Position numbers and translations under genes: made by a program. From Eledone cirrhosa (taxonomy: Eukaryota): a DNA stretch of 64,000 bases. The stretch covers positions 23,994,001 to 24,058,000 of the forward strand of contig OZ024753.1 of the NCBI GenBank assembly GCA_964016885.1. Reading direction: 5' to 3'. This document shows, piece after piece, positions 1 to 38,639 of this stretch. The notes under the pieces are model-generated. The model worked only from the letters and a program-made list of their open reading frames with translations. It had not been told where the DNA came from and made no database searches. How positions within the stretch are numbered: the first letter of the stretch is position 1; each line of letters starts with the position of its first letter.

Positions 1-1936
1 CACGTCTCTCTAGTTACACACACACACGTCTCTCTAGTTACACACACACACGTCTCTCTAGTTACACACACACATGTCTCTCTAGTTACACACACACAGA
101 GACGTGTGTGTGTGTAACTAGAGAGACATGTGTGTGTGTAACTAGAGAGACGTGTTTGTAACTAGAGAGACGTGTGTGTAACTAGAGAGACATATGTGTG
201 TGTGTAACTAGAGAGAGGTGTGTGCGTGTGTAATTAGAGAGAAATATGTGTGTGTTTAACTAGAGAGACGTGTGTATGTGTGTAACTAGAGAGATGTGTG
301 TGTGTGTGTGTAACTAGAGAGACGTATGTGTGTGTGTTACTAGAGCGACATGTGTGTGTGTAACTTGAGAGACGTGTGTGTATATAACTAGAGAGACGTG
401 TGTGTTTGTTACTAGAGAGACGTCTGTGTGTGTAACTAGAGAGACGTGTGTGTGTGTCACTAGAGAGACGTGTATTTAACTAGAGAGACGTCTGTGTGTA
501 ACTAGAGAGACGTGTGTGTGTAACTAGAGAGACGTGTGTGTGTGTGTGTGTAACTAGAGAGACGTGTGTGTGTAACTATAGACGTGTGTGTGTAACTAGA
601 GAGACGTGTGTGTGTGTGTAACTAGAGAGACGTGTGTGTGTAACTAGAGAGACGTGTGAGTGTAACTAGAGAGACGTGTGTGGGTAACTAGAAAGACGTT
701 TGTGTGTGTGTTACTAGAGAGACGTGTGTGTGTAACTTGAGAGACGTGTGTGTAACTAGAGAGACGTGTTTGTGTGTAACTAGAGAGACGTGTGTGTGTG
801 TGTGTGTAACTAGAGAGATGTGTGTGTGTGTGTAACTAGAGAGACGTGTGTGTGTGTTACACGTCTCTCTAGTTACACACACACACGTCTCTCTAGTTAC
901 ACACACACATGTCTCTCTAGTTACACACACACACAGACGTGTGTGTGTGTAACTAGAGAGACCTGTGTGTGTGTAACTAGAGAGACGTGTGTGTAACTAG
1001 AGAGACGTGTGTGTAAGTAGAGAGACATATGTGTGTGTGTAACTAGAGAGACGTGTGTGTGTGTGTAACTAGAGAGACGTGTGTGTGTGTGTAACTAGAG
1101 AGACGTGTGTGTGTGTGTAACTAGAGAGACGTGTGAGTGTAACTAGAGAGACGTGTGTGTGTAACTAAAAAGACGTTTGTGTGTGTGTTACTAGAGAGAC
1201 GTGTGTGTGTAACTTGAGAGACGTGTGTGTAACTAGAGAGATGTGTTTGTGTGTAACTAGAGAGACGTGTGTGTGTGTGTGTAACTAGAGAGACGTGTTT
1301 GTGTGTTACCCGTCTCTCTAGTTACACACAGACACGTCTCTCTAGTTACACACACACACGTCTCTCTAGTTACACACACACATGTCTCTCTAGTTACACA
1401 CACACAGAGACGTGTGTGTGTGTAACTAGAGAGACCGGTGTGTGTGTAACTAGAGAGACGTGTGTGTAACTAGAGAGACATATGTGTGTGTGTAACTAGA
1501 GAGACGTGTGTGTGTGTGTAATTAGAGAGAAATATGTGTGTGTAACTAGAGAGACGTGTGTGTGTGTGTAACTAGAGAGACGTGTGTGTGTGTGTTACTA
1601 GAGAGACATGTGTGTGTGTAACTTGAGAGACGTGTGTGTATGTAACTAGAGAGACGTGTGTGTTTGTTACTAGAGAGACGTCTGTGTGTGTAACTAGAGA
1701 GACATGTGTGTGTAACTAGAGAGACGTGTGTGTGTGTGTGTGTAACTAGAGAGACGTATGTGTGTAACTAGAGAGACGTGTGTGTGTGTGTAACTAGAGA
1801 GACGTGTAAGTGTAACTAGAGAGACGTGTGTATGTAACTAGAAAGACGTTTGTGTGTGTGTTACTAGAGAGACGTGTGTGTGTAACTTGAGAGACGTGTG
1901 TGTAACTAGAGAGACGTGTTTGTGTGTAACTAGAGA

Positions 1937-1971
<35 letters not shown>

Positions 1972-3074
1972 CTAGAGAGATGTGTGTGTGTGTAACTAGA
2001 GAGACGTGTGTGTGTTACACGTCTCTCTAGTTACACACACACACGTCTCTCTAGTTACACACACACACGTCTCTCTAGTTACACACACACATGTCTCTCT
2101 AGTTACACACACACAGAGACGTGTGTGTGTGTAACTAGAGAGACCTGTGTATGTGTAACTAGAGAGACGTGTTTGTAACTAGAGAGACGTGTGTGTAACT
2201 AGAGAGACATATGTGTGTGTGTAACTAGAGAGAGGTGTGTGTGTGTGTAATTAGAGAGAAATATGTGTGTGTGTAACTAGAGAGACGTGTGTATGTGTGT
2301 AACTAGAGAGACGTGTGTGTGTGTGTGTAACTAGGAGACGTGTGTGTGTGTGTTACTAGAGCGACATGTGTGTGTGTAACTTGAGAGACGTGTGTGTATA
2401 TAACTAGAGAGACGTGTGTGTTTGTTACTAGAGAGACGTCTGTGTGTGTAACTAGAGAGACGTGTGTGTGTGTGTCACTAGAGAGACGTGTATTTAACTA
2501 GAGAGACGTCTGTGTGTAACTAGAGAGACGTGTGTGTGTAACTAGAGAGACGTGTGTGTGTGTGTGTGTAACTAGAGAGACGTGTGTGTGTAACTATAGA
2601 CGTGTGTGTGTAACTAGAGAGACGTGTGTGTGTGTGTAACTAGAGAGACGTGTGTGTGTGTGTAACTAGAGAGACGTGTGTGTGTGTGTAATTAGAGAGA
2701 AATATGTGTGTGTGTAATTAGAGAGACGTGTGTATGTGTGTAACTAGAGAGACGTGTGTGTGTGTTACTAGAGAGACGTGTGTGTGTAAGTATAGAGACG
2801 TGTGTGTGTGTGTTTGTTACTAGAGAGACATGTATGTGTGTGTATAACTAGAGACACGTGTGTGTGTGTGTGTGTAACTAGAGAGACGTGTGTGTCTAAC
2901 TTGAGAGACGTGTGTGTAACTAGAGAGACGTGTGTGTGTGTAACTAGAGACACGTGTGTGTGTAACTAGAGACACGTGTGTGTGTGTAACTAGAGAGACG
3001 TGTGTGTGTGTAACTAGAGACGCGTGTGTGTGTGTAAGTAGAGACATGTGTGTGTGTGTAACTAGAGAGACGTG
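1..3074. repeat. Minisatellite: 14-bp core TAACTAGAGAGACG + variable (TG)n, with short inverted blocks
   Basis: Core repeated throughout. Reverse-orientation blocks (CGTCTCTCTAGTTACACAC) at about 1-97, 859-933, 1311-1405 and 2018-2113. Diagnostic variants (AGAGGTG, GAGCGACA) recur about 2017 bp apart. Confidence 0.95.
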
Positions 3075-3119
3075 TTGGTGCAGGCACCTGTGATATGTAT
3101 TTTCAGGAACTTTGATCAA

Positions 3120-9217: not shown

Positions 9218-9424
9218 ACCTTCCTGTCAGTTGATTGAACGTTTGAAAGTATATACTTTCCTTATGCATATTAACGGCTGAGCAGCCTAATTTGCATATC
9301 GAGTGAGTTAGTCAGCCGGGCGTACCGAAAACGATAAATGCAACAAATGAAATTTCATTTCTCACTCTTAATACTTAAATATAAGTATGTATATGTACAT
9401 ACATATATGTATACAGCCGACTAA

Positions 9425-10860
9425 CTGGGAAGATGTGAGGATGAGGATGTCGTCCACGTACCTTGAGAAAAAGGCGACGGCGTTGGGGTGGCAGGTGTTG
9501 AGCCTGTCGGGTGTGCTAGCGATCTCATACATGGATAGCCTCGAGCGCAAGGCACTCAACACCTGCCACCCCAACGCCGTCGCCTTTTTCTCAAGGTACG
9601 TGGATGACATCCTCAACCTCACATCTTCCCAGGAGATGGCGAGCAGAATTTATGTGACGTTCAAAAACACGGACGAGAATATTGATTTTAGTGTTGAACA
9701 CCCCAACGACGACGAGTCCCTTGCCCTCCTCGACTTCCGAATCAACATCACGGAACAGGGAGGGATCCACACAAACTTCTACCGCAAGGCAGCCTGCGGG
9801 GACTTGTTCGTCCACTACAAGTCTGCCCTCCCTAACAGTGCTACAAGAGTGTACATCACGAACGAGATCACGCGAATTAAAAACAGATGTAGCGATCCCG
9901 TGAGTGGTGTCACCCATACCAAGCCGTTCCTCGGGGTGCTGGAGACGAACGGATAGCCAGCCTCACTTACAGAGTAAGAGACACCAGACGCAAGAGGCAG
10001 AGAAACACCCAAGACAAGTGCTTCCTTAAAATCCCGCACCCGGGCGAGAAAACCACCAACGCTATCCGCAGGGCTATACGGAGAGAGGGCCTCGACATCC
10101 ACCTGGCCCACTCGGGCCCTTACCTATGGAAATGCCTCTGCAGGAAAACGGGAAATCGACTGACGCGTGTTCCCTCAGAAACTGCCCGATGCGCCATACG
10201 AACTGTTGCCTACGCACATACGTTGTATACAGGGTAGAATGTGACAAGTACAACCACTACTATATCGGTAGCACAATCCGGCCGCTACATATCCGGATCA
10301 AGGAGCACATCAACACCAGGGCCTCGTCTTTCCGGAAACACATAATGAAATGCGGAAACAAAGATGGAAGTCTCATTGTCACAGTGCTAGCGACAGAACG
10401 CAACGTCGGCACGTTACGAATCAAGGAAGCACTTTGGACCACATATAAATAACCGATCCGAGAAAAGCGAGACGAGGTGGCTGGTGTAAACAAACGAGAC
10501 AACAGCACACGCACACACACACACACAGTGGCATTCGAACGATTGTTATTGTGTGTATAGCGCCCCCACCATCCACCGACCAACAAGCGACCAGACAGAT
10601 TACTACACTGCCAGTAACAAAGACTAGTACATATAGGTAGTACAATGGATTGACAGCTAGCACCATCCCACTCCCACAATAAAGAGGAGCTGCCTCGACC
10701 TTTGCTTGACCGCACCTATTCCGCGCGCACGTGCGCTCTACAGAATATCTGTTACACACAAACGGTGGACAACAGAGGCCACGTACCTCTCCGACAGATA
10801 TCTTTCCCCCTCGGAAACCCCCCAGTTGATGGATGCGAAATCCGAAATATAGGGACAATT
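9425..10860 (+). mobile_element. 5'-truncated Penelope-like element (RT C-terminal half + GIY-YIG), frameshifted
   Basis: RT motifs FFSRYVDDIL, LALLDF, FYRK, HYKSALP (ORF 9387-9956). Endonuclease CSLRNCP...C..VVYRVECDKYNHYYIGSTIRPLHIRIKEH (ORF 10126-10452). 3' boundary approximate. Confidence 0.9.
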
Positions 10861-17369: not shown

Positions 17370-17406
<37 letters not shown>

Positions 17407-17411
<5 letters not shown>

Positions 17412-18273
17412 TATGAAGAGAGAAGAAACATTTAGATATAATTAGTAATAAAATGTATCATACCTAAACTGCTCCTAGATTCCTCGACTACGTAGTTTCG
17501 TGGCATAAACAAAAACAATACATCACAAAGATATAGAGTCCTTGCGAGGTCTGCCGACTTATCAAGAGGATACCTCATTTTACTAGTCTCAAGAACGCGT
17601 CTACACGACGTGAGAAAGATTCCCGCGGATGCATTCATGTATATGTGTGTGTCCGCATGTATCTGTGTGTTTTTAAATATATTGTTAATAACTCCCTCTG
17701 GTCGAGCAATCTTTGAAGTGTGGGGACTGCTGGAAAGCTTCCATTACTCATACTTCTCGCCCCCTTCACCACCTCTTCTACGGCTTCGATATAAATACCC
17801 CCTCCGCCTCCGTGGTATTTTCTTCGGGGTTATAAGAGGCTTAGCTCTGTTTCTCGACCGTTATATCGCGTGACTATCTCCCCCTCCGCCTTTTGGGAAT
17901 CTTTCTCACGTCGTGTAGACGCATTCTTGAGACTAGTAAAATGAGGTATCCTCTTGATAAGTCGGCAGACCTCGCAAGGACTCTATATCTTTGTGATGTA
18001 TTGTTTTTGTTTATGCCACGAAACTACGTAGTCGAGGAATCTAGGAGCAGTTTAGGTATGATACATTTTATTACTAATTATATCTAAATGTTTCTTCTCT
18101 CTTCATAATGTATTTTTAACTCTGATACTGGTTCAGTCTGGTTCAACCGGATTGGTCTGTCCCAGTCATTCATTGAGCAACATCGGTGAAGTTGGCACCC
18201 TTAACTCACGGTTGGGTGCGGATGCATTCATGTATATGTGTGTGTCCGCATGTATCTGTGTGTTTCTAAATAT

Positions 18274-18277
<4 letters not shown>
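17407..18277. mobile_element. Second insertion of the 591-bp HHR element: inverted partial copy (17407-17624) + about 1.1 direct copies, in (TA)n
   Basis: Highly similar to 34391-37606, with scattered substitutions. Orientation switch at GAGAAAGATTCCC|GCGGATGC. HHRs at 17481-17570 (-) and 17949-18038 (+). Confidence 0.9.
17949..18038 (+). ncRNA. Variant hammerhead (U3-A8 core)
   Basis: TCCTC-TTGATAA-GTCGGCA...TGCCAC-GAAA-CTACGTA-GTC-GAGGA. Confidence 0.8.
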
Positions 18278-18332
<55 letters not shown>

Positions 18333-18501
18333 AAAATCAGGACTCCGACGGCTGAGCTCCGGTCGTTTCGAAAGCTAGAACCGAACTATATAAATGTATA
18401 TACATAAACAATGAGTTATATGCTTTTTGATGAGTATTCATACCTATTGTAAGCGGAGGTTTATACTTTGGGTATGTCACTATCTTATACATCAAATATT
18501 G

Positions 18502-18562
18502 TATTTTATCTGATTTCAAGGATACTACAATTTAGTATCCTTGAAATATGTATAATAAAATA
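18502..18562 (+). ncRNA. Family A hammerhead relic with overwritten core
   Basis: TATTTTAT-CTGAT-TTCAAGGATACTA caatt TAGTATCCTTGAAA-TATGTATA-ATAAAATA. The GA of the core is replaced by an extension of the stem II palindrome. Confidence 0.45.
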
Positions 18563-21803: not shown

Positions 21804-21877
21804 ACATATATATATATGTATATATATACATATATATACACATATATACATATATATACATATATATACATATATAA

Positions 21878-22078
21878 AGAAATACACAGATACACGCGGA
21901 CACATACATATACATGAATATATCCACATATATCCATCAATTTGTGGTCCCAACCTCAACCGATGTTGCTCTATGAATAACTGGGACAAAATAATCCGAA
22001 TGGATTAGATTGATTCAGTATCAGAGCTATATAATACATTATAAAGAAAAAAGAAACATTAGATATAATTAATAAGAT
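21878..22078 (-). mobile_element. Diverged relative of the 591-bp element, cut by a SINE
   Basis: ACACAGATACACGCGGACAC...CCGATGTTGCTCTATGAATAACTGGGACA...CAGTATCAGAG...AGAAACATTAGATATAATTA aligns with 34825-35020. Confidence 0.8.
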
Positions 22079-22081
22079 ATA

Positions 22082-22215
22082 CCATACCCGTAGCTGAGCG
22101 GTTAGAGAATTGGATTCTCAATCGTAAGGTTGTGAGTTCGATTCCTGGACCAGGCGATGCGTTATGTCCTTGAGCAAGACACTTTATTTCACGTTGCTCC
22201 TTCTACATTGAGTTG
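22082..22215 (+). mobile_element. tRNA-derived CORE-like SINE (inverted copy at about 25170-25300)
   Basis: GTAGCTGAGCGGTTAGAG...GAGTTCGATTCC, then GTCCTTGAGCAAGACACTTTATTTCACGTTG (CORE-like). Confidence 0.75.
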
Positions 22216-22333
22216 CGACCGATAGTTAGTATTAGCAATTGGAAAAACCAGCGGAATATTGTTTCCTAGGTCCGATTTGACGAAAGTCGATCGTTCCTAA
22301 AAAAAAAAGAAATATATATATATGTATGTGTAG

Positions 22334-22407
<74 letters not shown>

Positions 22408-22442
22408 GTATATATATGAATATGTAGATAGACCAGGTTTTT

Positions 22443-22502
22443 TTCATTCTGAGGATTGAAGGCAACATTTTTTTGCTTTTAAGAAACCACTGGTTAATAG
22501 AA
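22443..22502 (+). ncRNA. Type I hammerhead, family B (mutated copy at 24957-25016)
   Basis: TTCATT-CTGAGGA-TTGAAGGCAA catttt TTGCTTTTAA-GAAA-CCACTG-GTT-AATAGAA. Confidence 0.7.
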
Positions 22503-22758
22503 TAATTGCCTTATGTTGTTTATTACATTACTACTATATATATGTATATATAAGATTCATATGAATTATCTAAGATTGAGTTTTACACACACACATATAT
22601 ATGTGTGTGTATGTATATATATATATATGTATGTGTGTGTGTATGTTTGTATTTGGTTGTGCGTGTTTGTGATATGTACGTATTTGTATGTGTATAATTG
22701 TATAGCTATGTATGTGTGTATGTGTATATATATATATATTTGTGTGTATGTGTGTGTG

Positions 22759-23245: not shown

Positions 23246-24549
23246 TGAGCGTCCGTCATCTACTACCGCCTGACCGTGGTGCCTTGCCCAAGGGAAACGC
23301 TCGCCAAAATGGAGCGCGCACTCTTCCAATTCCTTTGGAAGAAGCGGGCTCCTATGGTCAGGAGATCCATCTGCTGTCAACACCCTTCGAAAGGAGGGCT
23401 GGGTATGCCGTGGCTAATGATACGTAAACACGCATTAAGGCTACGGCACCTTCAGGTATTCCTCTCCGGTCAACCGGTGTGGGCCCCGTTTGTGAGGCGA
23501 GCCTTTCCCAGACTCGTCTCACTCACCGAGCTGCAATCCTGGGTCAAGCAAAGACCGAGAAAACTGGGCGCCTGGCACACCGAGTGTGCCCAGGCGCTCA
23601 CGGCTCTCTGGCAGGCGGACCCGGCTGTCAGTGGAGAATCCACCTCGTCATTCTATAGAGGGCTGGTGGTTAGCAGGTGCGACGACGCCCTCGGAGAAGC
23701 CCTAGGCATGGAGGAAGACGAACTGGCCAACCTGTTCGGAAGGACATTGAGCCCGGGACCCATGGATAACTTCCAGAGGTCCCTGGCCTGGCAATGCTAC
23801 AGAAGGGCTCTGCCCGTTCGAGAAAGGCTCTACAGACACGGGCGCCCGGGTAGGGACCCATCGAAAAAGGTCTGTCTCAGATGCGTGTGCGACGAGGAAA
23901 CCGTTGCACACGCATTGGTACACTGCTCGGGCATTGCCGATCTGTGGGGCTATGTCGAACAACTGCTGTCAAGGGTGGGACCGATCCGGTTGACCACCGA
24001 GTCTATTGTAACGATCAAGCCGCCTCCCCTCTTCAAAAACGAAGGAGAGGCGGTGTTTCTGTGCGTAATAGCCATGGCGAAAGAGGTTGTATGGTGGACG
24101 CGTCTGAAAGGACTGAGGTCAGACACCTTTCTCTCTGGCCAACAACTGGTCCGTTTCTTCCGATATCATTTCGGAAGAAGGATCAGGATGGAGAGAGAGG
24201 TGCTGCACCCCAGCCGTTTGTATGAAAGATGGGTGAAAGTGGCGAGAATGGCCCGTGTGAATGGGCCTTCACTCTACATCAGACTATAGGTGAGGAAGAT
24301 GAAAGACCAAGGGAGCACCCCTTCTCTGTGCTCCTGAGGAGAAGGGTTGCACACTTTTTTCGGGGGTGTGTGCGACCCCCCAAGGCGCCTCCTCTCTATT
24401 GAGGACTTTGTTATAAATTTTATTTTTTGTTATATTTTATTTTATTTTTATATATTGTTATTGCCTCCTCCTTATTGAGGACGCCTTGTTTTGTAAACTC
24501 CTCCCAGTGTACTTGTCCCACTTTTGATGCCCTGGTGGCAAATAAAAGA

Positions 24550-24816: not shown

Positions 24817-25416
24817 ATGTATTCTTTTGTGTGTGTATGTGTTTGCATGTGTGGTTTTATTTTATTTTTCCTTTCCTTCTTCTCTCTTCAGCCTCACTTT
24901 CATATAGATTGCATTTTTGTTTTTAAAATCCAAATTTAATAAACAGACCAGGATTTTTTCATTCTAAGGATTGAAAGCAAAATTTTTGGCTTTTAAGGAA
25001 CCACTGGTAAATGGAATAATTGCATTATGTTGTTTATTACATAACTATATATATATATATATACATATATTTCTTTTTTTTTTAGGAACGATCGACTTTC
25101 GTCAAATCGGACCGAGGAAACAATATTTCCGCTGGTTTTTCCAATTGCTAATACTAACTATCGGTAGCAACTCCATGTAGAAGGAACAACGTGAAATAAA
25201 GTGTCTTGCTCAAGGACATAACGCATCGCCTGGTCCAGGAATCGAACTCACAACCTTACGATTGCGAATCCAATTCTCTAACCACTTAGCTACGGGTATG
25301 GTATATCTTATTAATTATATCTAATGTTTCTTCTTTCTTTATAATGTATTATATAGCTCTGATACTGAATCAATCTAATCCATTCGGATTATTTGTGTGT
25401 GTATATATATATATAT

Positions 25417-25455
<39 letters not shown>

Positions 25456-25464
25456 TATACATAC

Positions 25465-25513
<49 letters not shown>

Positions 25514-25589
25514 CATACATATATATATACATATACATATGATATTAATTCAAAATATTAACAAAATAGATATTCTTGTGATCAATTAT

Positions 25590-27779: not shown

Positions 27780-29275
27780 CTATATGACTTGTAAGTTGCA
27801 TAGTGTTTGTGCATGCAATTCTAGCAGTGTTCTGGGAGTTTATTGAGTAAGGGTCCTTTGGCGAATAGTATTTCGTAACTCTCGGAAATACAAAGGTCAC
27901 AACAATTATGGCCTCCTGTGTAAGACCGCGCTCTCTGGGGTAGTTTCCATTTGAGCGTAAAGGGGATGGAGTTCCTTTTTAGGTCCCAGACATAGGCGGC
28001 GAGTGTTATTTTGTTGGACTTGTCCGGGCGTCGAAAAGAATGGGTGTGTGCGTTAAAGTTGTTGGAGGTCATCCCGATATACGTCTTTCTCTCTTCATCA
28101 GGGCCTGAGATGACATCACATTTGTATACAATATCCTTTATAAGGCATTTATTGCTTAAGAGGCATGCAGCCTTATCGTGGCAGTTGCACAGGACCCCGT
28201 ACAGGGATGGGTTTCGGAGGTAGTAGACTTATTTAACTTATTAATATTAATATTGGGTAAGTTCCTAGCTAGATTTGGTGTAGTGGAGTAAGAGAGTCTG
28301 ATTGTATTCTTATTAAAGATGGTGTAGTACTTATGTTGGGTGGGGAAGTGTTTGTGCAATAGACTAAAGAAATTTTTTGCTATAGGTGTAGATACCTCGC
28401 AGTTGAAGGGGGGGTTGTACCAGCTAATTTTCCTCTTCCTGGGTGGGCGTGGGGCTATTCTGAGATAAGAGATCTTATCTTTAAAACCTCTACGAGCTAG
28501 GGCTTCGTTGTAATAGAGGGCCGCGGCCCTAAAAATATCCTCATTGGCGGAGAGCCCAGAGATCCTAATGGAGACACTTTTAACTAAATTATCTGTAATG
28601 TTCTTGGGGTGATTCGAGTTAACGTCTATATAACTAAGGAATTCGTTAGGTTTGTGGTACGGATAATAAAGGGAGGTTTCTAAATCGAGAGTTACATCTA
28701 AGAAGTTGGCTCGAGTTAAACTCGAAGCTATAGTTATTCTGAGGCCTAGTTTATTGAAGAAAGCGTTAAGGTTTTTCTGAAACCCATCGGTAGTCCTAGG
28801 GTTACTTTTATGCAGGGAAAAGAGGCCGTCATCTCGGTATAATCCGCATGTAAGGCCTGTGAAGAGGGTTTTCATCCGGTTAAGGATAAACAGGCCCACC
28901 AGATCACTAATCTCAGCCGAGTCACTAGCACCCATGCTGACATCGAAGGGGGTCTCCGATTTTTTGTTGATCCAGTAGGACCCGTTATGGTACAAAAAGG
29001 TCTTAAGTGCATGGAGGATCACATCCTGCTCGGCGTCGGTTATGGTGGTTAGGTTTCTTGCGAAAGCAATTGCATCCTTCAGCAGGCACTCAGAAATGGA
29101 GGCGTAGTAATCCTCAATGTCAAGTTGCAGGAAACGGCTGTTGTGTTTGTCAGGCAGTTCTTCGAACCATGAGATTGCTTCGGATGTTCTATTCCAGAGT
29201 GGGAGAGGTGAAGCTGAACGCAGTGTCGGTAGTATCCTCTCCAGGATCTTCTTGCTGACAGATCCTATGGGGGTG
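27780..29275 (-). mobile_element. Penelope-like element, second type (YRDDGL RT; GIY-YIG without internal CxxC), frameshifted
   Basis: ORF 28156-29022: FDVSMGASDSAEISDLVGL, GLYRDDGL, NFLDVTL, YHKPN, SWYNPPF, RLSYS. Downstream IVYKCDV..VYIGMT and CDLCISE. Confidence 0.9.
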
Positions 29276-29592
29276 TGTGTGCTTGTGACCTTGTACTAAC
29301 CTACCATTTCCACATGTTCGATCAACTATTTGATATACCTTTTGTTCAAAATTGTACTATAGAATAAGGAAATGTTTATTTCAATTGCAACTTGCCACTA
29401 AACTTCTTTCTCTAATAAATTTTGTTTTTTCTAAGAATCCCCATCCTTTAATCCCACCATGACCCCCCACCCCCAATAACTCCCTTCCCTTACCATACAA
29501 ATTGTATAAATACCAGAAATTTACATTGACAGTCGTCTTTCTGATGATTTCCTCTGAATGAATAAAACAGTTCTAGTCGATATTAAATTACT

Positions 29593-33438: not shown

Positions 33439-33619
33439 CAAGTGTATCGAACTAGACAAATTGAGTTTGCGCTGGTACGCTGAATTTACCCACTCGCTCA
33501 ATGACGGGACCTGCATTTCCGAATTAGCGGTCAGTGATTCTGAGCGCACACATTTAGTTATTAGAGGTAAAATTGGAGTCATGTGCGAGCGTTATGTAAA
33601 TCACCATATATATATACGT

Positions 33620-33790
33620 TATTCCGGGTTGAATCGGAGGTAACCACAGTAAGTAAGGTACTCAATACATTGCAGAGTATAAAGGTTTTAATATAGATGA
33701 GATTCTACAGGACTAGAACTGTTTCATTCTTTAGAAATCATCAGGAATCTGGGTATCAAAAAATAAATATGGTATTTATAGGTCTCTACA
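33620..33790 (-). repeat. pLTR-like segment with HHR-like motif (family of 18650-18790 and 21240)
   Basis: CCACAGTAAGTAAGGTACTCAATAC end motif. Reverse strand reads CTGATGA-TTTCTAAAGAAT-GAAA-CAGTTC-TAGTCC; stem I is weak. Confidence 0.55.
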
Positions 33791-34319
33791 AGTGGTAGGA
33801 GAGGGTGGGGAGTGGGATGGGTGTAGATCATTGGTTGATAGAAAAGGGAATTCATTAAAAGCTAATTCTACAAAGCTATAGTTTATTTTTATTAATTTTT
33901 GTTTTTAGAGTAACAAAGGCAGACAGAATTCTATAAACAGGTTCCGGATGGCATACCATTCCTTGTCATTAAGTTTCTCTTAAGCTAACAGATGTCTATA
34001 AGATCAGTGGGGGGTCAGTCATGGTAGATATAATTAAAGGAAAGGGAGATTCTTTAAAAGCTAAATTCATTAAGGTTCTACTAAGTGACAAAGGTTTAGA
34101 GAATTCTGTAGACAGATTCAAAATATTGAGTGCATATCATACAATTATCTTCGAACTTCTCTTAAACTAATCAACTATATGCCAAAAATCAACAGACACA
34201 TTCACAAAAAAACACACTCACTCACACACTCGCGCGCAACCATAAACACACATACACATACACATATACACACATAAAAACACACACACATATATAAATA
34301 TATTTATATACACATATAT

Positions 34320-34390
<71 letters not shown>

Positions 34391-34395
<5 letters not shown>

Positions 34396-37300
34396 TATGA
34401 AGAGAGAAGAAACATTTAGATATAATTAGTAATAAAATGTATCATACCTAAACTGTTCCTAAATTCCTCGACTACGTAGTTTCGTGGCATAAACAAAAAC
34501 AATATATCAAAGACATAGAGTCCTTGCGAGGTCTGCCGACTTATCAAGAGGATACCTCATTTTACTAGTCTCAAGAACGCGTCTACACGACGTGAGAAAG
34601 AATCCCAAAAGGCGGAGGGGGAGATAGTCACGCGATATAACGGTCGAGAAACAGAGCTAAGCCTCTTATAAACACGAAAAAAATACCACGGAGGCGGAGG
34701 GGGTATTCATATCGAGGCCGTAGAAGAGGTAGTGAAGAAGGCGAGAAGTATGAGTAATGGAAGCTTTCCAGTTGTCCCCACACTTCAAAGATTGCTCGAC
34801 CAGAGGGAGTTATTAATACATTTAGAAACACACAGATACATGCGGACACACACATATATACATGAATGCATCCGCACCCAACTGTGAGTTAAGGGTGCCA
34901 ACTTCACCGATGTTGCTCAATGAATGACTGGGACAGACCAATTCAGTTTGAACCAGACTGAACCAGTATCAGAGTTAAAAATACATTATGAAGAGAGAAG
35001 AAACATTTAGATATAATTAGTAATAAAATGTATCATACCTAAACTGTTCCTAAATTCCTCGACTACGTAGTTTCGTGGCATAAACAAAAACAATATATCA
35101 AAGACATAGAGTCCTTGCGAGGTCTGCCGACTTATCAAGAGGATACCTCATTTTACTAGTCTCAAGAACGCGTCTACACGACGTGAGAAAGAATCCCAAA
35201 AGGCGGAGGGGGAGATAGTCACGCGATATAACGGTCGAGAAACAGAGCTAAGCCTCTTATAACCACGAAAAAAATACCACGGAGGCGGAGGGGGTATTCA
35301 TATCGAGGCCGTAGAAGAGGTAGTGAAGAAGGCGAGAAGTATGAGTAATGGAAGCTTTCCAGTTGTCCCCACACTTCAAAGATTGCTCGACCAGAGGGAG
35401 TTATTAATACATTTAGAAACACACAGATACATGCGGACACACACATATATACATGAATGCATCCGCACCCAACTGTAGACGCGTTCTTGAGACTAGTAAA
35501 ATGAGGTATCCTCTTGATAAGTCGGCAGACCTCGCAAGGACTCTATGTCTTTGATATATTGTTTTTGTTTATGCCACGAAACTACGTAGTCGAGGAATTT
35601 AGGAACAGTTTAGGTATGATACATTTTATTACTAATTATATCTAAATGTTTCTTCTCTCTTCATAATGTATTTTTAACTCTGATACTGGTTCAGTCTGGT
35701 TCAAACTGAATTGGTCTGTCCCAGTCATTCATTGAGCAACATCGGTGAAGTTGGCACCCTTAACTCACAGTTGGGTGCGGATGCATTCATGTATATATGT
35801 GTGTGTCCGCATGTATCTGTGTGTTTCTAAATGTATTAATAACTCCCTCTGGTCGAGCAATCTTTGAAGTGTGGGGACAACTGGAAAGCTTCCATTACTC
35901 ATACTTCTCGCCTTCTTCACTACCTCTTCTACGGCCTCGATATGAATACCCCCTCCGCCTCCGTGGTATTTTTTTCGTGGTTATAAGAGGCTTAGCTCTG
36001 TTTCTCGACCGTTATATCGCGTGACTATCTCCCCCTCCGCCTTTTGGGATTCTTTCTCACGTCGTGTAGACGCGTTCTTGAGACTAGTAAAATGAGGTAT
36101 CCTCTTGATAAGTCGGCAGACCTCGCAAGGACTCTATGTCTTTGATATATTGTTTTTGTTTATGCCACGAAACTACGTAGTCGAGGAATTTAGGAACAGT
36201 TTAGGTATGATACATTTTATTACTAATTATATCTAAATGTTTCTTCTCTCTTCATAATGTATTTTTAACTCTGATACTGGTTCAGTCTGGTTCAAACTGA
36301 ATTGGTCTGTCCCAGTCATTCATTGAGCAACATCGGTGAAGTTGGCACCCTTAACTCACAGTTGGGTGCGGATGCATTCATGTATATATGTGTGTGTCCG
36401 CATGTATCTGTGTGTTTCTAAATGTATTAATAACTCCCTCTGGTCGAGCAATCTTTGAAGTGTGGGGACAACTGGAAAGCTTCCATTACTCATACTTCTC
36501 GCCTTCTTCACTACCTCTTCTACGGCCTCGATATGAATACCCCCTCCGCCTCCGTGGTATTTTTTTCGTGGTTATAAGAGGCTTAGCTCTGTTTCTCGAC
36601 CGTTATATCGCGTGACTATCTCCCCCTCCGCCTTTTGGGATTCTTTCTCACGTCGTGTAGACGCGTTCTTGAGACTAGTAAAATGAGGTATCCTCTTGAT
36701 AAGTCGGCAGACCTCGCAAGGACTCTATGTCTTTGATATATTGTTTTTGTTTATGCCACGAAACTACGTAGTCGAGGAATTTAGGAACAGTTTAGGTATG
36801 ATACATTTTATTACTAATTATATCTAAATGTTTCTTCTCTCTTCATAATGTATTTTTAACTCTGATACTGGTTCAGTCTGGTTCAAACTGAATTGGTCTG
36901 TCCCAGTCATTCATTGAGCAACATCGGTGAAGTTGGCACCCTTAACTCACAGTTGGGTGCGGATGCATTCATGTATATATGTGTGTGTCCGCATGTATCT
37001 GTGTGTTTCTAAATGTATTAATAACTCCCTCTGGTCGAGCAATCTTTGAAGTGTGGGGACAACTGGAAAGCTTCCATTACTCATACTTCTCGCCTTCTTC
37101 AATACCTCTTCTACGGCCTCGATATGAATACCCCCTCCGCCTCCGTGGTATTTTTTCGTGGTTATAAGAGGCTTAGCTCTGTTTCTCGACCGTTATATCG
37201 CGTGACTATCTCCCCCTCCGCCTTTTGGGATTCTTTCTCACGTCGTGTAGACGCGTTCTTGAGACTAGTAAAATGAGGTATCCTCTTGATAAGTCGGCAG

Positions 37301-37602
37301 ACCTCGCAAGGACTCTATGTCTTTGATATATTGTTTTTGTTTATGCCACGAAACTACGTAGTCGAGGAATTTAGGAACAGTTTAGGTATGATACATTTTA
37401 TTACTAATTATATCTAAATGTTTCTTCTCTCTTCATAATGTATTTTTAACTCTGATACTGGTTCAGTCTGGTTCAAACTGAATTGGTCTGTCCCAGTCAT
37501 TCATTGAGCAACATCGGTGAAGTTGGCACCCTTAACTCACAGTTGGGTGCGGATGCATTCATGTATATATGTGTGTGTTCGCATGTATCTGTGTGTTTCT
37601 AA

Positions 37603-37606
<4 letters not shown>
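34391..37606. mobile_element. Array of a 591-bp non-coding hammerhead element: about 1.8 inverted copies (34391-35475) + about 3.6 direct copies (35474-37606), flanked by (TA)n
   Basis: Period 591 (HHR cores at 35514, 36105, 36696; 37286 after a 1-bp deletion). Copies are nearly identical. Minus-strand HHRs at 34465-34552 and 35056-35143. Confidence 0.95.
35509..35596 (+). ncRNA. Variant type I hammerhead (U3-A8), predicted cleavage after C35591; repeated at 36100-36187, 36691-36778, 37281-37368
   Basis: Stem I TCCTC/GAGGA; core TTGATAA; stem II GT(c)GGCA/TGCCAC; GAAA; palindromic stem III ACTACGTAGT; GUC triplet. Confidence 0.85.
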
Positions 37607-37647
<41 letters not shown>

Positions 37648-38126: not shown

Positions 38127-38270
38127 GGTTATATTTAATTTGTTGGGATTCAACAAGTTTAAACATTTTTATAACTGATATAAAGCACTCACTATCCAGG
38201 AAGCTCCAACCGTTAAGGTTGTCTTTTTTCAGGGTATGTCAATATTTATTTATAAAACTAATCTGTATTG

Positions 38271-38336
38271 TATTTTATCTGATGAAAGCGCACTATAATT
38301 TGCCTTGGTGGCCTTTGAAATATGTATGATAAAATA
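38271..38336 (+). ncRNA. Family A hammerhead, probably inactivated (G at cleavage position)
   Basis: TATTTTAT-CTGATGA-AAG..CAC...GTG..CTTT-GAAA-TATGT-ATG-ATAAAATA, in a (TA)n-flanked unit 38122-38380. Confidence 0.55.
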
Positions 38337-38374
38337 AATATGGTTTTATAAATATAGTTTCCATTCATTAATAT

Positions 38375-38433
<59 letters not shown>

Positions 38434-38639
38434 AAGTATGACCCTGACGGCAGAGTTCAAGCCGTTTCGACGGCTATTTCTGGACTACTACCCTAAGTAT
38501 TGAGTACTCTGATATAAGATATATATATATATATATGTAACCATATATATATATATATCTTATGTATCCACATAAATCAACATAATACCTTACCATATAT
38601 ATATATATCATATGTATCCACTATCAACTCCAGAATGAA

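Follow-up and report, generated by a model that had tools for sequence, protein, structure and literature searches.

The window analysed here, a 64,000-nt stretch of Eledone cirrhosa DNA (assembly GCA_964016885.1, contig OZ024753.1, positions 23,994,001 to 24,058,000 of the forward strand), contains at 17407-18278 two arms of one repeat in head-to-head orientation, bounded by two (TA)n tracts. A second insertion of the repeat occupies 34-37 kb. Unit positions are numbered from the first base 3' of the predicted cut of a hammerhead-like motif. The features of both insertions, in window coordinates, are:

17375..17408, no strand: left (TA)n target tract (sequence read)
17407..17624, minus strand: A arm, from unit 455 through the predicted cut to 80, with its outer end at site A (sequence comparison)
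17407-17420, minus strand: site A motif, terminal copy
17625..~18278, plus strand: B arm, from unit 186 through one full turn of the 593-nt unit to site B (~+245)
17949..18038, plus strand: type I hammerhead-like motif, predicted cut after 18033 (read directly in the sequence)
18034..18105, plus strand: predicted hairpin A, 3' end about 8 nt before site A, containing a splice donor at unit +22/+23
18101..18123, plus strand: site A motif, internal copy
18200..18267, plus strand: predicted hairpin B, 3' end about 10 nt before site B, 5' base at unit 169-180
18279..18328, no strand: right (TA)n target tract (sequence read)
34390..35476, minus strand: second insertion, A arm of 1.84 units whose inner end is at unit 176
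35474..37608, plus strand: second insertion, B arm with 3.6 copies of the 591-nt unit that are 99.7-99.9% identical to each other

In the 17-kb copy, the inverted arm (17407-17624) is 99.5% identical to 17895-18113, and the two arms meet at unit positions 455/186. With the predicted cut after 18033, site A falls at 18112/18113 (+79/80) and site B at +244/245, confirming the original prediction that the outer ends lie about 79 and 244 nt 3' of the cut. The right end, ...CTAAATATA, had been placed directly on (TA)n; the site itself was correct, but three more element bases (TTG) intervene and, because these belong to the 593-nt subtype, the element ends at about 18278.

The same inverted-then-direct architecture had been proposed for the array at 34-37 kb, and both its coordinates and the difference between the inner junctions hold. 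The array arms (34390-35476 and 35474-37608) overlap by 3 nt at an inner junction of unit 176/474. The two insertions are 95-97% identical to one another, whereas arms within each insertion are 99.5-100% identical; they belong to different subtypes (unit length of 593 nt in the 17-kb copy and 591 nt in the array) and have no common flank beyond (TA)n. The differing subtypes, junctions and flanks indicate that these are independent insertions, as was claimed, and we saw no sign of a segmental duplication joining the two loci. The array itself lies in (TA)n, next to a fragment of a Penelope-like family with 758-aa open frames (see below). Further degenerate hammerhead-like motifs of other families, adjoining (TA)n, were found by eye at 18330-18400, 18490-18560 and 38270-38480, and the region around the two insertions is a nest of hammerhead-motif insertions.

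The hammerhead-like motif is present on the plus strand of every unit, and comprises a stem I (TCCTC/GAGGA), a U3-A8 core (TTGATAA), a long stem II, GAAA and a palindromic stem III; its assignment to type I was made only by hand. A U3-A8 core and a palindromic stem III are known from Penelope ribozymes, according to PMC4209133. The three stems are seen in the predicted fold, with a stability not above that of shuffled sequences (z = -0.41), and an Rfam scan of 14-43 kb returned no hammerhead match, only microsatellite-driven microRNA matches. The longest stop-to-stop frames across the element span 97-125 aa, leaving it without a reverse transcriptase (RT) or endonuclease ORF of its own. Judged by its sequence, the 591/593-nt element is non-autonomous; we class it by structure alone as a putative retrozyme, one that behaves as a Penelope insertion. 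A back-joint of 591 nt is present in raw reads, although tandem DNA would give the same joint.

To count copies, we used as a marker a 25-base word located just 3' of B, a placement that disfavours arms ending at A or B. This word has 3,142 exact matches, and the genome thus contains at least 3,142 copies of the unit. Arms were then taken from all 58 loci holding the first 100 of the 3,142 matches (C1, 2.9-86 Mb), leaving out fragments below 92.9% identity but keeping one 66-nt old-family piece (L087), which counts among the 95 arms and the 28 single arms. The outer ends of these 95 arms lay at 78-81 in 53 cases, at 245-250 in 38 and elsewhere in four, so that 91/95 ended at A or B even though the two windows make up 3.6% of the unit; inner ends were variable. 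Random end points across the genome were therefore not seen. In 86 of the 91 ends at A or B, the following 20 nt were at least 85% (TA)n. Exact junctions between A and (TA)n numbered 2,516 genome-wide, and those between B and (TA)n 1,049, counted on the forward strand only because overlapping matches inflate the reverse count. Both flanks are (TA)n, with a median pure run of 26-27 nt, and no unique target-site duplication is legible; animal non-LTR retrozymes, where they have such a duplication, show one of more than 4 bp. In raw RAD-seq reads from a different study, loose ends in (TA)n likewise occurred at +80 (36262; 215 and 172 reads) and +245 (36427; 245 and 227 reads), together with strand-switch (inversion) joints at varied positions. 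The claim of two fixed end points, one per insertion side and both in (TA)n, was thus reproduced genome-wide and in independent raw reads.

Among 61 sampled insertions, 33 were two-armed, with an inverted 5'-truncated arm and a partial tandem. Thirty of these paired an A end with a B end, none was AA or BB, and three had one broken or aberrant arm. After removal of one local duplicate, 29 of 32 were A+B, which has a probability of 2e-9 under free choice with p = 0.5. The duplicate comes from locus L067 (2119-5972), where an entire two-armed insertion is tandemly duplicated with a period of 2,554 nt. A length-unbiased scan of end junctions in the first 82 Mb of C1, a set that overlaps the previous one and includes the same local duplicate, gave 33 head-to-head pairs, all A+B and none AA or BB. 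The 30 top loci also contained A+B pairs only, but these favour long B arms and were left out of the counts. According to the original prediction, the inverted arm ends at A and the direct arm at B; one of each is indeed the rule, but the order depends only on the strand, since in the unbiased scan 17 of the 33 pairs read one way and 16 the other. Both orders being equally common, the description 'inverted A, direct B' could as well be reversed. About half of the ends in the exact-match scan were unpaired (37 A and 27 B of 130), indicating that single-sided events are common. The fixed-end, paired-arm feature is real and reproducible. The element is a non-autonomous retrozyme of Penelope type whose tail measures 165 nt and whose head-to-head arms strictly take one end of each kind.

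A sister retrozyme family, with around 78% identity and the same two ends, has left old fragments at 21870-22088 (minus strand) and 25295-25400 (plus strand) of the window and at L179-L198. Its marker has 39 exact matches; judged by eye, 9 of 20 loci show a clear A+B pair and none is AA or BB. The surrounding part of the window also contains an inverted pair with 84% identity (21810-22327 and 25055-25545) that includes a tRNA-like piece, which we take to be a SINE, as well as a direct pair with 89% identity (22430-22550 and 24945-25063) flanking a 3' LINE fragment that matches zf-RVT at 23249-24289. Satellite arrays, with 24-nt units (inversion at 98) and 35/40-nt units, occupy 1-3075 and 43867-64000.

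Arms proved far more similar to their own partner than to other insertions. Wherever the overlap sufficed (23 of 28 insertions), arm and partner differed at 28 of 7,612 positions (0.37%), compared with 1.67% to other insertions. Variants private to one insertion were found in all of its units in 27 cases, 18 of them spanning both arms, in part of the units in two and in a single unit in 85; no clearly mixed-arm insertion was seen, despite the many coexisting subtypes. Arms traversed the predicted cut 148 times without a nearby indel. Inner ends do not pile up there, which led us to reject a cleaved linear monomer as the template. Shared variants and cut crossings fit repeated copying of a putative circular monomer, although two identical RNAs or later conversion fit as well. 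The excess of A>G changes on the sense strand among all-unit variants was weak (8 versus 3 T>C; one-sided p = 0.02 in a single post hoc test).

Each arm type runs across the start site of the other. In particular, 25 of 32 B arms extend beyond the 165-nt spacing between A and B, and so pass an A site, while none of the 32 ends within 20 nt of one. The 32 inner junctions showed an overlap of 1-5 nt in 21 cases, were blunt in five and contained extra bases in six. Inner ends cluster at unit 169-180, the base of hairpin B, with 11 ends in 12 nt, a density reached by 12 of 2,000 jittered controls. Very short arms (A arms of 57 and 62 nt; B arms of 67-70 nt) halt within their own hairpin, which is what independent starts would produce. 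In nine of 29 insertions each arm covers template that the other lacks; the remaining 20 have a geometry that allows fold-back, and the inner ends lie within 15 nt of each other in 4 of 29 (p = 0.06).

At unit 201-207, between A and B, lies a 7-nt stretch of exact TA, longer than any other in the unit; it serves as the outer end in none of the 95 arms, which led us to reject the best (TA)n match as the basis of site choice. Of the proposed two fixed priming sites annealing to (TA)n, the fixed sites therefore stand, and may well prime, but annealing to (TA)n is not what selects them. Instead, a long predicted hairpin (z = -4.5 for A and -5.1 for B in the 591-nt subtype) ends 8-11 nt 5' of each site, and the sequences of A and B around AATGTATT agree at 17 of 21 bases, as read from the unit. 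In the sister family hairpin B is kept (z from -1.8 to -4.0), and hairpin A is weak (z from -0.3 to -1.7). Site choice thus appears to follow the two predicted hairpins and the common motif, and not the best (TA)n match.

The window contains pieces of several Penelope-like elements (PLEs) with RT and GIY-YIG matches, and we searched for a cognate autonomous element. None was found among 60 PLE loci, retrieved with proteins of two PLE families from the window, which showed no homology to the unit beyond microsatellite; a search with the core pattern and a shorter stem II also gave no matches. Two loose-end leads to an autonomous partner were discarded, one leading to the non-coding sister family and the other to a single-copy exon. 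The 758-aa family, autonomous in appearance and with many open frames of that length, is found at 27821-29295 and 33460-34200 of the window (both minus strand) and at L134 and L210-L219. It has no sequence in common with the 591/593-nt unit, but shows a weak GIY-YIG match, a hammerhead motif of its own and its own ends at +27 and +96; of 10 loci retrieved, three had both ends visible, and all three were paired one of each, a fourth being cut by the locus edge and one being complex. A second Penelope-like family is represented at 9368-10452 by a GIY-YIG frame and by an RT piece whose inverted 5' arm is short. In sequencing runs of 11 other organisms, 0.21-0.31 of the words of the element (17410-18275) were present, which is only a lead for relatives in other species.

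A contig of run X4 exits the unit at a GT splice donor in hairpin A (window 36204, unit +22/+23) and continues, after an AG acceptor, in single-copy sequence (G000:C22:8279896; L199 1490-1530; L200 7225-7864). About 3.7 kb upstream there is a copy of the element in sense orientation, itself a B+A insertion. The contig looks like a spliced transcript running from the element into a host exon across an uncut ribozyme.

We consider it probable, at roughly 0.6, that a Penelope-type RT dimer started one RNA, probably a circular monomer, at A and B simultaneously, one start per cut target strand. The unit would be transcribed on the ribozyme strand, as the spliced contig indicates for one genomic copy, and the transcript would be cleaved and its ends joined to give a circular monomer. 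Hairpins A and B would be bound by an RT/GIY-YIG enzyme provided in trans; both (TA)n strands would then be nicked, and each 3' end would pair with a few bases at A or B. Nicking of both strands and two internal starts have been shown in vitro for another PLE (PMC11167929). Each enzyme would circle the template, presumably by strand displacement, and halt at a variable point; the variable inner ends and the passage across the other site are directly visible in the arms. Finally, the two cDNA ends would be joined, and the junctions show that this mostly involves 0-5 shared bases. Where a single start succeeded, a single arm would result. More tentatively, and with doubts that outweigh our confidence, Penelope integration might be obligately asymmetric in general: a dimer would grip one RNA circle at two hairpin-marked starts, one per cut (TA)n strand, and roll both ways, such that a single event would yield the inverted repeat, the tandem and the one-sided tail seen in every endonuclease-bearing Penelope element.

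Identical RNAs from one source locus, or later gene conversion, would also yield shared variants. An asymmetric dimer could hold two RNA molecules of the same source, either circles or uncut multimers, started at A and B respectively. Such a dimer accounts for the A+B pairing and for long overlapping arms with no need of strand displacement, the spliced contig traverses an uncut ribozyme, and reactions in vitro mainly used uncut RNA as template (PMC11167929). We nevertheless regard it as rather unlikely, given that many subtypes coexist 1.67% apart and no clearly mixed arms were seen, that private variants extend across both arms in 18 cases and only two are partial, and that there is no obvious reason why two free RNAs should avoid sharing one site. 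A single template sequence for both arms would also result if one cDNA, begun at one site, folded back or switched template onto itself, the second end being set by endonuclease resolution of the tail; self-priming was proposed in PMC3846280, and a tail formed by resolution in PMC8557442. This route agrees with the 20 of 29 insertions of permissive geometry and with the four whose inner ends nearly coincide, but the nine in which neither arm contains the other contradict it as a general route, and the very short A and B arms, halting in their own hairpins, also speak against it. It is improbable as the general mechanism, and may explain a minority of insertions.

In L1 twin priming both target strands prime, and the first cDNA halts at the site of the second primer. 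The original prediction invoked a twin-primed integration, which in this sense would mean that, on a linear RNA, the first cDNA starts from B and halts where the second primer anneals at A. The head-to-head layout is the same, and 21 of the 32 junctions show short overlaps. The B arms nonetheless pass the A site in most cases and never halt close to one, the sites are fixed and there is no poly(A). Arms crossing each other's start, along with the private variants common to both arms, rule out this mechanism unless templates were long multimers with a very loose stop, and we assign it a very small probability. There is even less chance that a single duplicated segment accounts for both window loci, or that misassembly at (TA)n created the layout. 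A local duplication of a whole insertion does exist at L067, and the junction at 17624/17625 is bridged by none of the read matches listed, whose contigs are short. Against this stand the differences in subtype, junction and flanks, the thousands of dispersed ends, and the recurrence of these ends, and of inversion joints, in raw reads produced by a separate study; for the family as a whole both possibilities are refuted.

The start of one RNA at A and B by an enzyme dimer, which we favour, shares with L1 twin priming the use of both strands, the head-to-head arms and the short junction overlaps; it differs in that the second site is fixed and not set by chance, the arms overlap on the template and can span several units, and poly(A) is lacking. 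With endonuclease-bearing Penelope-like elements, as described in PMC8557442 and PMC3846280, the element has in common the head-to-head inverted arm and tandem, the extension at one end, the microsatellite target and the hammerhead in the repeat. Unlike them, it has no ORF of its own, and its tail measures 165 nt, compared with the published 30-40; pairing is strict, whereas these papers describe the extension as present 'often' or 'optionally' at one end. How inverted and tandem PLE insertions are made is stated as an open problem in PMC8557442.

Animal non-LTR retrozymes (PMC7229834; bioRxiv 10.64898/2026.07.22.740005) also consist of non-coding tandem units with a type I hammerhead motif, and both sources propose a circular RNA intermediate and a PLE origin. 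The portions of these texts available to us describe no inverted arms or fixed array ends; the word 'inverted' is absent from the main text of PMC7229834 and, in that of the preprint, occurs only in the title of a reference. The return of animal retrozymes into DNA has so far only been proposed. The layout, the one-sided tail and two internal starts have already been published for Penelope-like elements (PMC11167929, PMC8557442, PMC3846280), and a strict pairing count, or twin priming in Penelope elements, was not found in the open-access literature searched.

The closest parallel is Poseidon_Ac, studied in vitro by Frangieh et al. 2024 (PMC11167929), which likewise has two internal starts 3' of the ribozyme that define the tail, an AT-rich target whose two strands are both cut and extended, and an enzyme predicted to form a dimer; according to that account, cleavage is unnecessary in vitro and uncut RNA is the main template. 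Its starts are described as adjacent and placed in a single AC-rich stem-loop; they lack homology to the target, and the two strands did not differ in start site. In the element from E. cirrhosa, by contrast, the sites are 165 nt apart, each follows its own predicted hairpin and has a few bases matching TA, and the two sides never share a site. Thousands of young copies make this rule countable, and its occurrence in a retrozyme, in a sister family and in an autonomous PLE constitutes a sharp prediction for the in vitro system (PMC11167929).
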